From an uncultured Chloroflexia bacterium (GTDB taxonomy: Bacteria > Chloroflexota > Limnocylindria > Limnocylindrales > CSP1-4), in contig CAWHXM010000005.1 in assembly GCA_963833285.1 (NCBI GenBank), forward strand, positions 579,093 through 643,092: 64,000 nt of DNA, read 5' to 3'. Shown piece by piece: positions 31,944-34,524 of this stretch (the stretch's first letter is position 1; every line of letters starts with the position of its first letter). Both the position numbers and the translations under genes were made by a program. Under the pieces are notes generated by a model. That model saw only the letters and a list, made by a program, of their open reading frames with translations, searched no databases and was not told the DNA's origin.

Positions 31944-33251
31944 TCAGAGCTCGCTGGCCACTCCCGGGGCCGGGGTTCCGGCGGCCGTGTCCGCGTCGCG
32001 GCCCCCAGCAGTCTCGCCGGCCGCCCCGCCGCGTCGACGGACGATGGTCACCGCCCCGAACAGGAACACGGCCGAGCCGGCGATGAACAGCCCGTGGACG
32101 CCGCTGACCGATGCGACGACCGCGCCGACCGCCGGACCGATGATCCCGGCCGCATACAGCGGCAGGTAGACGAGGTTGAGGGCCGCCGATCGCCGTTCGG
32201 CCGGGAGCTCGGTGGCGAGCAGCCCGAAGATCATCGAGCTGACCGTCGCGGTCGCCGCACCGAGGACGACGGCCAGCAAGGCGAGGCCCCCGACCGACCC
32301 GGCGAGCGGCATGAGGAACAGCACCGCGCTCGCGCCGCCGAGCGCCGCGACAAGGACGGATCGGAAGCCGACCCGGTCGCCGAGCACGCCACCGAGCGGC
32401 GACACGAGGGCACCAACGAGCGCGGCCGTCCCCATCACGAGGGCGATCGACGACGCGAGGCCCGGTCCGACGCCGGTGATGCCCTCGACGAGGACGGGGA
32501 TGTACGGCCGGCTCATCTGGATCGCCACGAACGAGATCCCGAAGATGACGAAGATCCGCCGGGTCGGCGCGTCGGTCAGCACCCCGCGCAACGATGCCCG
32601 GGCAAGGTCGACGATCCGCCCGCTCGGCACGACCTCCGGGCGGACCTCCTTCGAACCGAATGTGACGAGGAGCGCGGTCCCCACCGACAGCAGGGCCGAG
32701 AAGGCGAAGACCGGCGGCAGTGCCCAGCCGAAGCCGTCGATGAGGATGCCCGCCAGCGCCGGCCCGATCGCGAACCCGATCGGTCCCGATGCGCCGAAGA
32801 TCGCGATGGTCGTGCCGAGCCGGGCCCGCGGCGTGACGTCGCGGATGCCGGCCAGCATGATCCCGGTGTTGCCGAGCTGGAACCCGATGAGCAGCATCGC
32901 CAGCGCCACCTGCCAGGGTTCGCGAGCAAGGGCCACCCCGGCGAAGACGACGGCCTCGACGAGCGCGCTCCGGACGATGACCACCTTGCGGCTGTACTTG
33001 TCGGCCCACGCACCCCACAACGGGACGAGGGGCATGCCGACGACGAAGATCAGCGCGCTGAAGACCCCAATGAAGGCCAGCCGGTCGGAGGTCGCGACAC
33101 CCATCTCGCGCAGGTATGTCGGGAGCAGCGCGAAGATCTGGCTGACACCAAGCCCCTCGACCATGGAGGTGGCCCAGAACACCGCCACGAGGAGCCGCCA
33201 GTCCTGGGCGGGGCGGGATCGGGCGGGGGCCAGGGCGCCGGTAGCGGACAC
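31944..33251 (-). CDS. MFS transporter (12 TM)
   Basis: Motif A twice (WGAWADKYSRK, GVLGDRVGFR). Confidence 0.9.
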   Translation of the reverse strand: MSATGALAPARSRPAQDWRLLVAVFWATSMVEGLGVSQIFALLPTYLREMGVATSDRLAFIGVFSALIFVVGMPLVPLWGAWADKYSRKVVIVRSALVEAVVFAGVALAREPWQVALAMLLIGFQLGNTGIMLAGIRDVTPRARLGTTIAIFGASGPIGFAIGPALAGILIDGFGWALPPVFAFSALLSVGTALLVTFGSKEVRPEVVPSGRIVDLARASLRGVLTDAPTRRIFVIFGISFVAIQMSRPYIPVLVEGITGVGPGLASSIALVMGTAALVGALVSPLGGVLGDRVGFRSVLVAALGGASAVLFLMPLAGSVGGLALLAVVLGAATATVSSMIFGLLATELPAERRSAALNLVYLPLYAAGIIGPAVGAVVASVSGVHGLFIAGSAVFLFGAVTIVRRRGGAAGETAGGRDADTAAGTPAPGVASEL

Positions 33252-33334
33252 ACCGCGAGCCTAGCCGATGGGCCAGTGGGCCGGTGGGCCGGCACCAGGC
33301 CACCGGAACGTCGACTCGCCGGACACGCGAAAGC

Positions 33335-33515
33335 GCCCGAAGGAACTGGTGGGGACCTCCGTTCGACGGGTCCTGAGGCTACGAACAAGTCCGCAGTCCC
33401 TGGTCGTCGCCGAGTCCCTCGCTCGCCGGCCTTGCGACCTGCGAACCCGGTTCCCGGGACCGTCTCGAGGATCACTCCTCGAACCGGTCTGGCGGTTCAA
33501 CCTGCCCCTTCGGGC
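33335..33515 (-). ncRNA. Candidate 181-nt structured non-coding RNA (6S-sized, family not recognised)
   Basis: The ends pair (GCCCGAAGG/CCUUCGGGC); internal hairpins carry GUGA, GCAA and CUUG tetraloops; G-U pairs work only on the minus strand; a promoter lies directly upstream. Confidence 0.7.
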
Positions 33516-33522
33516 AAGACGA

Positions 33523-33552
33523 AATGTACGGGCGGGGCCCCGGACACGACAA
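33523..33552 (-). promoter_or_regulatory. sigma70-type promoter for the candidate ncRNA
   Basis: TTGTCG-N18-TACATT, then 7 nt to the first paired G at 33515. Confidence 0.6.
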
Positions 33553-33557
33553 CGGGC

Positions 33558-33632
33558 TTGTCCACGAACTTGGATGGAATGCCAGGGAAGTTATCCCCGA
33601 ACTTGATGCCGATGTGGACGGTCTGTGGATAC
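33558..33632. promoter_or_regulatory. Cluster of four DnaA-box-like 9-mers
   Basis: TTGTCCACG (33558), TTATCCCCG (33591), TGTGGACGG (33613) and TGTGGATAC (33624), compared with TTATCCACA. Confidence 0.5.
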
Positions 33633-33654
33633 ACTGGGCGGGGAGGAAGTACGC

Positions 33655-34524
33655 ATGGGCCATCTGCTCGCCCGCGTCATCGCCGCCCAGGATCGCTGGG
33701 CCAGACCGCTGGGGGACTTCAACCATCGCTGGTTGAGTGCCCTGTTCCGTCCGATCCGGCCCATCAGGAACCTCCTCAACGGGGTCTGGCTCGGCCACCC
33801 TCTCCACGCGGCCGCCACGGACATCCCGATCGGGACGCTGCTCCTGGTCATCGTGCTCGACCTCATCGGCCAGCCGGCTGCCGCCGACATCGCGCTCGTC
33901 GCGACGATCCTGTTCATGCTTGCGGCGGCCGTGACCGGCGCGGCCGACTACACCGACACGGACGGCACCGCCCGGGTCCGGGCAACGACGCATTCGACGC
34001 TCATGGTCGTGGCGCTCCTCGTCCTGCTCGTCTCGCTGGGCCTCCGCGCCGGGAGCCCGACCGACCGGACGATCCCGATCGGCCTCGGGATCGTCGGCTT
34101 CCTGATCGTCGTCGGCGGCGCGTACATCGGCGGTGACGTCGTCTACCTGCTCGGCAACATGGTCAGCCGCCACGCATGGCGCGGCCCGGGATCGAAGTGG
34201 GTCCGCCTCGACACCGGCGACCTGGCCGACCTTGGTGCGCTTCCGGAGGCGACGCCGGCGAAGGCCAAGGCGGGCATCAACGACATCGTCCTCGTCCGCG
34301 TCGCCGATACCGTCTTCGCGCTGCACGCCGTCTGCGCCCACGCCGGCGGTCCGTTGGCCAATGGGACGTTCACCGACGGCTGCATCGAATGCCCGTGGCA
34401 CGGCTCGCGCTTCCGGCTGACCAACGGACGGGTCCGCCGCGGCCCGGCGCTGTACGACCAACCGACCTACGAGATCCGTGCGGCCGATGGCGGCGGGTAC
34501 GAGGTTCGTCGCGCGGGTTCGTGA
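33655..34524 (+). CDS. DUF2231-like membrane domain + Rieske [2Fe-2S] domain
   Basis: WLGHPLHAAATDIPIG; CAHAGG and CPWHGS; GGAGG RBS. Confidence 0.88.
   Translation: MGHLLARVIAAQDRWARPLGDFNHRWLSALFRPIRPIRNLLNGVWLGHPLHAAATDIPIGTLLLVIVLDLIGQPAAADIALVATILFMLAAAVTGAADYTDTDGTARVRATTHSTLMVVALLVLLVSLGLRAGSPTDRTIPIGLGIVGFLIVVGGAYIGGDVVYLLGNMVSRHAWRGPGSKWVRLDTGDLADLGALPEATPAKAKAGINDIVLVRVADTVFALHAVCAHAGGPLANGTFTDGCIECPWHGSRFRLTNGRVRRGPALYDQPTYEIRAADGGGYEVRRAGS

Follow-up and report, generated by a model that had tools for sequence, protein, structure and literature searches.

A predicted family of sibling small RNA genes behind DnaA-box-like arrays in uncultured soil Chloroflexota

Sets of sibling small RNAs (sRNAs) that are controlled by one regulator are well known, RsmX/Y/Z behind a GacA site and Qrr1-5 behind LuxO being cases in point. 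The Y RNAs, partners of the Ro/Rsr proteins, also come as paralogues, with an invariant terminal stem that is formed from both ends of the molecule and with variable internal modules. Ribonucleotide reductase promoters, for their part, represent a classical class of DnaA targets. The DnaA regulon promoters, that of ribonucleotide reductase included, and the clusters datA and DARS are the subject of PMC4585315 and PMC12371093. The nearest concept found in print is CcnA of Caulobacter crescentus, a 182-nt cell-cycle non-coding RNA whose gene is tied to the master regulators of replication: it lies inside the origin and is driven by CtrA, and the RNA pairs with the ctrA and gcrA mRNAs (PMC8959179).

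Here we consider a locus in a window of 64,000 nucleotides (the whole stretch of DNA that was analysed) from an uncultured member of the Chloroflexota. The reading that we favor, with about even confidence, is that this locus is a stand-alone sRNA gene of ~190 nt that belongs to a superfamily of sibling genes, is controlled by DnaA and, like its siblings, encodes a regulatory RNA that probably binds protein. With RsmX/Y/Z and Qrr1-5, the superfamily would have in common the presence of several genes per genome, one upstream operator arrangement and one shared RNA segment, but the operator appears here as an array of DnaA boxes, and the shared part of the RNA is the terminal helix and not a set of repeated loop motifs. 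With CcnA (PMC8959179), the element shares a length of ~180 nt and an apparent wiring to a replication regulator; CcnA, however, is encoded at the origin and depends on CtrA, whereas the sRNA genes described here lie away from oriC, are preceded by arrays of the DnaA type and come as several siblings. No kinship of sequence or fold with CcnA is apparent. As in the DnaA regulon, datA and DARS, clusters of consensus boxes are found outside oriC, and the same type of array precedes a class II ribonucleotide reductase gene in this genome; the difference is that the arrays of the superfamily precede genes of structured RNAs, for which the literature searched offers no case.

The structured RNA itself is real. 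The minus strand of positions 33335-33520 folds with -100.5 kcal/mol, as compared to -80.05 +/- 4.34 kcal/mol for 200 shuffled sequences, none of which equals it (z -4.71); the plus strand of the element gives z -3.09. The strand assignment made in the preliminary description is borne out by 204 G-U cells versus 10 A-C cells and by paired cells amounting to 94.3% in the sense as compared to 83.7% in the antisense orientation. In the genus alignment (28 distinct rows), where 94.3% of the cells are paired, 20 pairs show changes on both sides, versus 7.9 +/- 1.6 in shuffled controls (0 of 500 reach 20) and 2-6 in slid ones. A set of 31 rows from the family yields 50 of 66 pairs changed on both sides (31.5 +/- 2.6 shuffled, 22-28 slid) and a metagenome set of 70 distinct rows yields 31 such pairs (11.8 +/- 1.9 shuffled, 7-15 slid), these two alignments being fitted to the model and hence biased towards its structure; both for covariation and for the counts of presence given below, related genomes are not independent samples. 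In all three sets of collected homologues, the closing helix and three arms are supported, so that the fold supported by covariation consists of a closing helix and a four-way junction with three local arms. These arms are capped, in the long member, by two GNRA tetraloops and one CUUG tetraloop; RNAs that combine strong covariation with two GNRA tetraloops typically adopt a well-defined tertiary structure and act with a dedicated partner. A coding reading was rejected, inasmuch as the lengths of close relatives (197-203 nt) differ by non-multiples of three and the changes are compensatory.

The predicted transcript (33324-33515, minus strand, about 192 nt) would start at G33515 or 1-2 nt earlier and end in the tail at 33324-33334. 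Its very ends form the closing helix P1, with the 5' strand GCCCGAAGGGGC (33504-33515), invariant across the superfamily, and the 3' strand GUUCCUUCGGGC (33335-33346), as seen in the fold and in the genus and family alignments. This pairing, continued by GGU/ACC, is the one that had been proposed from the sequence, and the 181 nt then given as the length of the element are indeed what its outermost paired bases, both included, span. All 12 pairs of P1 are constant in the 28 distinct rows of the genus; at the family level, helix 1 (the 12-bp P1 together with a 3-bp extension) has 7 of 15 pairs constant and 4 changed on one side only, and every other helix covaries. The GGU/ACC extension shows one compensatory change (to GAU/AUC, in locus L022) and one paired deletion (in L037). 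RNAalifold draws a local hairpin GGC.GGU/ACCGCC in place of this extension, an option that was discarded as the changes in L022 and L037 alter both sides of the long-range pairing. Directly after P1 comes the U-rich tail GCUUUCGCGUG (33324-33334, minus strand), which is kept in 30 of 30 genus loci and where conservation stops, ending abruptly after GCGCTTTCGTGTG. P1 and the tail together are likely to act as a terminator; a scan for local-hairpin terminators did not call the tail because the stem is a long-range one.

The three arms were in part correctly anticipated in the preliminary description. Arm P2 (33458-33489, minus strand), the GNRA-capped hairpin described there as GACCG..UCGAGGA-GUGA-UCCUCGA..CGGUC, appears in the minimum-free-energy fold and is upheld by covariation, with 10 of 12 pairs changed on both sides at the family level and with GUGA, GCGA, GCAA, GUAA and GAAA as loop variants. 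The same holds for the distal hairpin CUGCGGA-CUUG-UUCGUAG of arm P4 (33364-33409, minus strand), in which 10 of 10 pairs are changed on both sides in the family; in other genera, the CUUG cap is replaced by GCAA or a large GAUCACAUCAAGG loop. In the long arm P3 (33410-33457, minus strand), which has purine-rich 2x2 internal loops and a GCAA cap and whose helices (5-8 of the family alignment) all covary, only the inner section of the earlier drawing, UCGC-A-GGUC-GCAA-GGCC-G-GCGA, stands, both in the minimum-free-energy fold and in the covariation. The outer register (GUCCC/GGGAC, GG/CC, CCGGGU/ACUCGG) and a further proposed hairpin, GGAC-CCG-UCGAA-CGG-AG-GUCC, are not supported: 79.3% of their cells are paired, a value reached by 379 of 500 shuffles, there is no excess covariation, and the bases of both helices take part instead in alternative pairings that covariation supports.

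Upstream of the RNA, the -10 hexamer TACATT (33523-33528, minus strand) and the -35 hexamer TTGTCG (33547-33552, minus strand; TTGTGG in most relatives) are found where a promoter had been suggested, with the -10 ending 7 nt upstream of G33515, the first paired base. This register is kept in the 78 distinct copies of the superfamily, of which 73 have TAnnnT at -13 and 62 have TTG at -37/-36. The hexamers are weak by consensus (8/12), and a strict consensus scan calls neither promoters nor terminators at the element; hence, the case for the promoter rests on positional conservation and not on consensus strength.

The element appears to be the long member of an sRNA superfamily with 1-5 genes per genome, 80-190 nt in length. 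It is found in 33 of 36 genomes of the same genus, at 77-96% identity. In its own genome, there are three superfamily genes, the two sisters, with predicted RNAs of about 85 nt, sharing with the long member the promoter and both RNA ends. The lengths of 76 copies fall into three classes, namely 70-89 nt (n = 20), 140-149 nt (n = 5) and 170-189 nt (n = 51). The cassette common to these genes comprises 3-5 DnaA-box motifs, the -35 and -10 in fixed positions, the 12-bp closing helix that the two extremities of the RNA form, and the U-rich tail, with a variable interior in between. In the paralogues of 80-150 nt, the promoter and the closing helix are the only parts in common, which suggests the terminal helix, and not a mimic of an open promoter, as the shared functional part. 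The short members have, in addition, a conserved single-stranded loop of 13 nt, GAGAUCACAUCAAGG.

As judged by these sequence matches, the superfamily is confined to one soil family of Ca. Limnocylindrales (Ca. Limnocylindria, Chloroflexota); a streamlined sister family is devoid of these sRNAs. The 5' 16-mer that covers P1 is found, with at most one mismatch, in 121 of 137 genomes of this family, as compared to 0/16, 3/92, 12/153 and 0/2 genomes in other families; a control with the reversed pattern gives 15/245 for the second and third of these families taken together, the same rate as that of the 16-mer there. About half of the matches (57 of 118) in a plain 16-mer scan of the genome collection are chance matches in unrelated taxa.

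Four DnaA-box-like motifs precede the promoter, all read here on the minus strand. Motif D (CGTGGACAA, complement of TTGTCCACG; 33558-33566) abuts the -35 and has one mismatch to TTGTCCACA; its TTCGTGGA[CT]AAG is constant in 30 genus loci and retained in other genera. Motif C (CGGGGATAA; 33591-33599) is replaced in the same position by CGTGGACAA in other genera, whereas motif B (CGTCCACAT; 33612-33620), with an orientation opposite to that of C and D, has a TCCACA that is constant in the genus and retained across genera. Motif A (GTATCCACA; 33624-33632) has one mismatch to TTATCCACA. The four motifs are constant in the 30 genus loci and keep their positions in all 31 loci that were compared across genera, with GGGGATAA replaced by GTGGACAA in the cross-genus change. 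The sRNA promoter carries, at 33558-33632, two boxes with at most one mismatch and two weaker ones. At least three GTGGA/TCCAC cores within -150 to -25 are found in 95% of 77 copies versus 3.3% of 5000 control windows; under a strict definition, at least two boxes are present in 52% of the copies only. The genome (3.02 Mb) contains 250 boxes with at most one mismatch to TT[AG]TCCACA, and only 7 real windows of 150 bp hold two or more of them. Among these windows are the three sRNA promoters, oriC next to dnaA, and an array of five boxes that precedes the gene of the class II ribonucleotide reductase; in 13 of 21 family loci, at least three boxes lie ahead of this gene. The boxes at oriC lie in the dnaA-dnaN spacer, and dnaA and oriC are on a contig other than that of the element.

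From these data, the following mechanism can be envisaged. We infer that DnaA, bound to the box array, would set the rate of sRNA transcription, so that the DnaA regulon would include the sRNAs as an output at the RNA level, co-expressed with ribonucleotide reductase. The closing helix and the tail, judging from the anatomy, would end transcription and seal both ends of the RNA, and the invariant helix would serve as a sequence-specific handle. The folded interior would act in trans, with binding to a protein likelier than pairing with mRNA because the conservation throughout the family lies in helices and tetraloops and not in single-stranded stretches; for the short members with the conserved 13-nt loop, a base-pairing mode may apply. 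A further step, to which we attach low credence, is that the sibling RNAs, with their common protein handle, form an RNA arm of the DnaA regulon and exert feedback on dNTP supply or on initiation, for instance through binding to DnaA or one of its regulators, or through an effect on the mRNA of dnaA or of the reductase. If this were true, it would amount to an RNA-based replication checkpoint in a sizeable uncultured group of soil Chloroflexota.

Should the favored reading hold, there would be a new structured RNA family, a set of sRNA genes as main targets of DnaA, for which no earlier case was found in the literature searched, and a handle on cell-cycle control in the Limnocylindria, an abundant soil lineage with, to our knowledge, no cultured member. 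The cassette, with its fixed promoter, an invariant helix that seals the ends and an exchangeable interior, may also interest builders of stable RNAs. In the literature searched on Limnocylindria, and in a term search of PMC13212565, neither sRNA nor DnaA was mentioned, and no work on the RNA biology of the lineage was found.

Since the binding of DnaA is deduced from sequence motifs, another factor that recognises GTGGAYAA could bind there instead. The sRNAs would then still be siblings, with the boxes bound by this other regulator or representing mere promoter architecture, and would function as ordinary riboregulators, through mRNA pairing or protein binding, with no link to replication. 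We regard this as rather unlikely, although the boxes are short and two or more strict ones occur in just over half of the copies, as indicated above, and although the single-stranded loop GAGAUCACAUCAAGG of the short members could be a pairing seed. The motifs match the universal DnaA-box consensus, and similar boxes are found at oriC beside dnaA and in the ribonucleotide reductase promoter, both in this genome and in its relatives. As for the loop, a search of the own genome gave no complementary target with at most two mismatches close to the start of a gene. Its exact complement occurs only at the gene itself, and the best other site has 2 mismatches and looks coding, so that no target was retained. 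Elsewhere in the genome, TTCGTGGAYAA recurs twice and TGCCCGAAGGGG once, in sequence that looks coding and lacks the cassette; these sites are taken as chance matches.

The preliminary description placed the element, alternatively, among divergent 6S-like or Ms1-like RNAs that bind RNA polymerase, or in a new class of non-coding RNAs. The former reading we now consider improbable. Like 6S RNA (RF00013), the element is ~185-190 nt long, is present in single copy, has its own promoter, and has a closing stem formed from both ends. Moreover, RF00013 detects no 6S RNA in any of 41 family genomes; the 6S role is therefore vacant to the extent that this model, which misses 6S RNA in 9 of 14 control genomes, can tell. 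However, 6S RNA is a rod with a central bubble, whereas covariation yields, for the element, a closing helix and a four-way junction with three tetraloop-capped local arms, with neither rod nor bubble, so that the 6S-like architecture once proposed is not supported; and the paralogues of 80-150 nt share nothing but the promoter and P1. No match to RF00013 was found in the window at the gathering score, in the region 33150-33750 in E-value mode, or in the own genome at E <= 1. Ms1 is a mycobacterial RNA (Actinomycetota), whereas the host of the element belongs to Chloroflexota, and none of the 4227 models of Rfam 15, which may include Ms1, matches the element. In fact, the whole window gives, at the gathering score, only tRNA-Sec; in E-value mode, the region 33150-33750 gives only ilvB-OMG, at 14.9 bits and on the wrong strand, which was set aside as a chance match, and a short paralogue gives only noise. 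The suggestion of a new family thus agrees with the Rfam search. An interpretation as SRP RNA was also rejected, the large SRP RNA of the genome being encoded elsewhere (180 bits).

It is, further, conceivable that the functional unit is the DNA, i.e. that the box arrays are sites of DnaA titration or reactivation, similar to datA or DARS, and that transcription only modulates their occupancy by DnaA. The sRNA promoters do make up 3 of the 7 densest box clusters of the genome, and, in four single-contig relatives, the sRNA genes lie at 0.48-0.99 of the distance from dnaA to its antipode, a weak trend towards the terminus given that it comes from 9 genes with rounded genome sizes and an origin assumed at dnaA. 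Still, this reading seems quite improbable, because the transcribed part is strongly selected for pairing at the RNA level, G-U pairs that function in just one of the strands included, which would be unexpected for a by-product transcript.

The arrangement of the neighboring genes could be taken to mean that the RNA is a cis-acting leader or riboswitch of the gene downstream, with P1 and the tail forming a terminator stabilised by a ligand. This gene, on the same strand, codes for an MFS transporter (31944-33251; Pfam MFS_1, 2.2e-33), whereas the gene upstream (33655-34524, plus strand; Pfam Rieske, 1.5e-15, and DUF2231) is divergent, both being outside the RNA unit. In the genus, the MFS gene is found downstream of the RNA in 25 of 30 loci, 68-160 nt away in 18 of them, and the position of the U-rich tail directly after P1 would also suit a leader. 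The context, however, largely refutes this interpretation, which we deem very unlikely. The MFS gene is 386-477 nt away in 7 genus loci and follows the RNA in none of the 22 loci from other genera, so that the association is not constant, and the short paralogues occur in unrelated contexts. The separate -10 that had been ascribed to the MFS gene is recognisable as a -10-like TAGGCT hexamer at 33258-33263, 6 nt before the GTG start, a promoter of the leaderless type; a -10 at such a distance accompanies the gene in 25 of the 30 genus loci, i.e. in 25 of the 25 that have it. With conservation ending at the tail, these data are in accord with the earlier view of the element as an independently transcribed RNA gene and not a leader. 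The Rieske/DUF2231 gene occupies its divergent upstream position in 27 of 30 loci of the genus and in 4 of 22 from other genera. Among the latter, in keeping with the favored reading, thymidine kinase is a neighbor in 4 of 22 loci (the one scanned with NCBIfam scored above the cut-off) and a DnaB-family ATPase also in 4 of 22; the scores of these ATPases, 72-83 bits versus equivalog cut-offs of 385, are far too low to identify them as the replicative helicase.

Highly improbable, too, is that the element acts with a Ro (TROVE) protein in the manner of a Y RNA. As in Y RNAs, the superfamily combines a terminal stem, conserved in sequence and not just in pairing, with variable modules, and the architecture resembles that of Y RNAs; there is, however, no Rfam match, and TROVE (PF05731) was found neither in the own genome (83% complete) nor in more than 1 of 33 genomes of the genus (24 of them at least 90% complete). 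Neither Hfq nor CsrA turned up in this 83% complete genome.

Finally, a dispersed repeat of the MITE or REP type, or a chance fold, can be practically dismissed even though a high GC content favors folding and the plus strand, too, folds better than its shuffles, since orthology and synteny of the locus hold within the genus and it covaries above the controls. The full-length element, in keeping with this, occurs in the own genome as one copy, all other BLAST matches being 34 nt or shorter, and P1 is carried by only three genes there.

The element between the MFS and Rieske genes (window 33324-33515, minus strand) is a free-standing gene for a strongly structured sRNA and represents a new family, and it is nearly certain that both the fold and the family are real. 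On the minus strand, the stretch 33335-33520 folds at -100.5 kcal/mol, as compared to -80.05 +/- 4.34 kcal/mol in 200 dinucleotide-preserving shuffles, none of which folds as well (z -4.71), whereas the plus strand reaches a z-score of only -3.09. In the minus-strand fold, the ends of the RNA form the closing helix P1, with GCCCGAAGGGGC paired to GUUCCUUCGGGC and GGU/ACC extending it; inside, a short long-range helix is followed by three local arms, the caps being GUGA, GCAA and CUUG. The paired ends and capped arms of the preliminary description are thus recovered, as is its choice of strand, since G-U pairs occupy 204 cells and A-C pairs only 10. Two of its helices did not hold: their cells are 79.3% paired, which is not above shuffles, and the same bases are supported in other pairings. 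A local 5'-end hairpin proposed by RNAalifold was also rejected, being contradicted by a compensatory change in one locus (L022) and a paired deletion in another (L037).

The RNA has homologues in which both-side changes at paired positions exceed those in shuffles, as found in three sequence sets (28, 31 and 70 rows). In its own genome (3.02 Mb in 7 contigs, 83% complete) the element is single-copy, all remaining BLAST matches being 34 nt or shorter, so that a dispersed repeat, which the preliminary description had named among the outcomes that would refute it, is rejected. By BLAST, the element is present in 33 of the 36 same-genus genomes at 77-96% identity and absent from the sister family (0/24 genomes). 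In 30 genus loci aligned with their flanks, conservation sets in some 120 nt ahead of the RNA and ends abruptly past GCGCTTTCGTGTG. The trimmed genus alignment (28 distinct rows) has 94.3% of its cells paired by the fold and both-side changes at 20 pairs, versus 7.9 +/- 1.6 in shuffles (20 is reached in 0 of 500) and 2-6 with slid partners. Across the family, a covariance model matches 82 of 151 genomes, spread over 35 of the 49 genera, tallies that take in the unpublished genome G140; a 22-mer of the 3' end retrieves 76 metagenome contigs, all of which carry the RNA, 73 at full length. Both-side changes occur at 50 of 66 pairs in 31 sequences from many genera (31.5 +/- 2.6 shuffled, 22-28 slid), and 31 pairs covary in 70 distinct metagenome rows (11.8 +/- 1.9 in shuffles), these two alignments, unlike that of the genus, being fitted to the model and biased towards it. 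Family-wide, the helices and tetraloops of the interior are conserved and the single strands are not. Judging from the alignments, P1 is constrained in sequence, beyond mere pairing, because the pairs of helix 1 (P1 and its extension) barely vary at family level, with 7 of 15 invariant and 4 changing on one side only, while all other helices covary freely. One 1.7-kb metagenome contig (L303) carries two full-length, convergent long RNAs (98-297, plus; 940-1140, minus).

The RNA is flanked on its downstream side by an MFS transporter gene and on its upstream side by a divergent Rieske/DUF2231 gene. The Rieske gene is found there in 27 of 30 genus loci and in 4 of 22 from other genera; the MFS gene, 68-477 nt past the RNA, is present in 25 of the 30 and in none of the 22. 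Wherever it adjoins the RNA (25/25 loci), the MFS gene has its own TA(G/C)NCT hexamer 6-8 nt ahead of the start codon, which is kept even where the gene is 340-430 nt away; in the window this is a -10-like TAGGCT (33258-33263, minus) 6 nt ahead of the GTG start (33249-33251). On these two grounds the leader reading is rejected, and the earlier view of a stand-alone RNA beside an MFS gene with its own -10 is borne out. Since the hexamer-to-start spacing is typical of such messages, the MFS message looks leaderless, with its own promoter. Outside the genus, the long RNA immediately follows a thymidine kinase gene in 4 of 22 loci (L054, the one of these scanned against NCBIfam, exceeds the cut-off) and a DnaB-family ATPase gene, scoring far under equivalog cut-offs, in 4 of 22.

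The long RNA belongs to a superfamily of sibling genes with a common cassette. Two short sister genes of ~80-90 nt lie outside the window in the same genome (G000), on contigs C5 (323071-322990, minus) and C4 (76239-76330, plus); like the long RNA, each has the upstream DnaA-box motifs and the -10, begins with the same 12 transcribed bases and carries CTTCGGGCG(C/T)TT at its 3' end, but its interior is different. The C5 gene, the sole short gene scanned against Rfam, has no match there; its conserved loop GAGAUCACAUCAAGG is found again in long homologues from distant genera, in their third arm. Relatives have 1-5 superfamily genes, which fall into classes of ~80, 145 and 185 nt and are in some cases arranged in tandem. 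Two tandem clusters, L088 (G158:C35:11873-14729) and L074 (G080:C1:515295-516197), hold 2-3 genes within 0.3-2.5 kb, with ~150-nt forms bearing two CAGGUGCUUGCAUCGG-type CUUG hairpins. When up to one mismatch is allowed, the 5' 16-mer is present in 121 of 137 family genomes, and the figures for the other four families of the class are 0/16, 3/92, 12/153 and 0/2 (tallies including the unpublished G388, G440 and G488); the few outside matches are at chance level, because a reversed pattern is equally frequent in the two middle groups (15/245). When one genome per species was scanned for exact matches, at least 118 stretches came up, at least 61 with the 3' partner; among the first 80 stretches, 42 have the partner, 39 of them in MAGs titled Limnocylindria, Limnocylindrales, Chloroflexota, Chloroflexia or Anaerolineae, which assigns the host to class Ca. 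Limnocylindria of the Chloroflexota.

The promoter of the preliminary description stands as to position, TAnnnT being found at -13 from the first P1 base in 73 of 78 distinct copies and TTG at -37/-36 in 62, and not as to strength: a strict consensus scan calls nothing, the hexamers being weak by consensus. Because the -10 register is fixed across copies, transcription should start at or just ahead of the first paired G. Farther upstream lie four motifs (33558-33632, minus), GTATCCACA, CGTCCACAT, CGGGGATAA and CGTGGACAA, which fit the DnaA-box consensus TT(A/G)TCCACA or its complement and are invariant in the genus; other genera keep the positions, with CGTGGACAA in place of CGGGGATAA. At least three GTGGA/TCCAC cores occur between -150 and -25 in 95% of 77 copies; among 5000 control windows drawn from these loci the figure is 3.3% (the 78 and 77 copies each include one from G140). 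DnaA-box arrays form part of the superfamily cassette.

The mechanism can be envisaged as follows: DnaA would set transcription of the sRNA, P1 and the tail would terminate the transcript and seal both its ends, P1 would serve as a protein handle, and the RNA would act in trans through protein binding. DnaA control of the transcription seems somewhat better than an even bet; the whole package, from new family and cassette through DnaA control to P1 as terminator and handle and protein binding in trans, we hold to be evenly balanced between right and wrong. As for novelty, Rfam 15 has no gathering-score match to the element, E-value mode giving only ilvB-OMG (14.9 bits, wrong strand); the sole gathering-score match in the window is a tRNA-Sec (RF01852, 48342-48434, minus, 65.5 bits). 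The divergent 6S-like or Ms1-like RNA proposed earlier is improbable, the shape of the RNA and its paralogues arguing otherwise; it keeps a small share because RF00013 matches none of 41 family genomes, of which 39 have a completeness of 90% or more, and a 6S RNA of this family, if any, goes unrecognised by that model. The locus might instead be a titration site at the DNA level, against which stands the selection on RNA pairing. A Y-RNA-like partner of a TROVE protein is countered by the rarity of the TROVE domain in the genus (1 of 33 genomes); neither CsrA nor Hfq was found in the 83% complete own genome. SRP RNA is rejected, the large-type one (RF01854, 180 bits) being located elsewhere (G000:C5:30843-31107, minus). 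A coding reading is likewise rejected.

A literature search gave nothing linking Limnocylindria with noncoding RNA and, among the papers listed, judging by the openings of abstracts, no sRNA genes behind DnaA boxes; the relevant paper on sRNAs and DnaA boxes is that on CcnA (PMC8959179). The main text of a paper on these Chloroflexota lineages (PMC13212565) nowhere mentions sRNA, DnaA or riboswitch.

The own genome holds 250 DnaA boxes with at most one mismatch, and just seven real 150-bp windows have two or more: three at sRNA promoters, one in the dnaA-dnaN spacer, one pair in C1, an inverted pair (one perfect, one 1-mismatch; G000:C6:182119-182161, L220) upstream of an ORF that looks, from its translation, like a carboxyltransferase, and a five-box array of direct GTGGAYRA (G000:C5:232111-232230; L219:1612-1731) upstream of a class II ribonucleotide reductase gene. 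After the latter array come palindromes resembling NrdR boxes and a TTGACT/TATCGT promoter. Within a fixed span of 480 nt, 13 of 21 family loci show a similar array ahead of the reductase gene; in several of the remaining loci the leader is longer than this span can cover. In four single-contig genomes (G198, G081, G087, G411), the sRNA genes stand at 0.48-0.99 of the distance between dnaA and the opposite contig point; this covers 9 genes at 7 loci, genome sizes being rounded and dnaA taken as the origin. In G087 three tandem copies, and in G081 the long RNA, are nearly exactly opposite dnaA.
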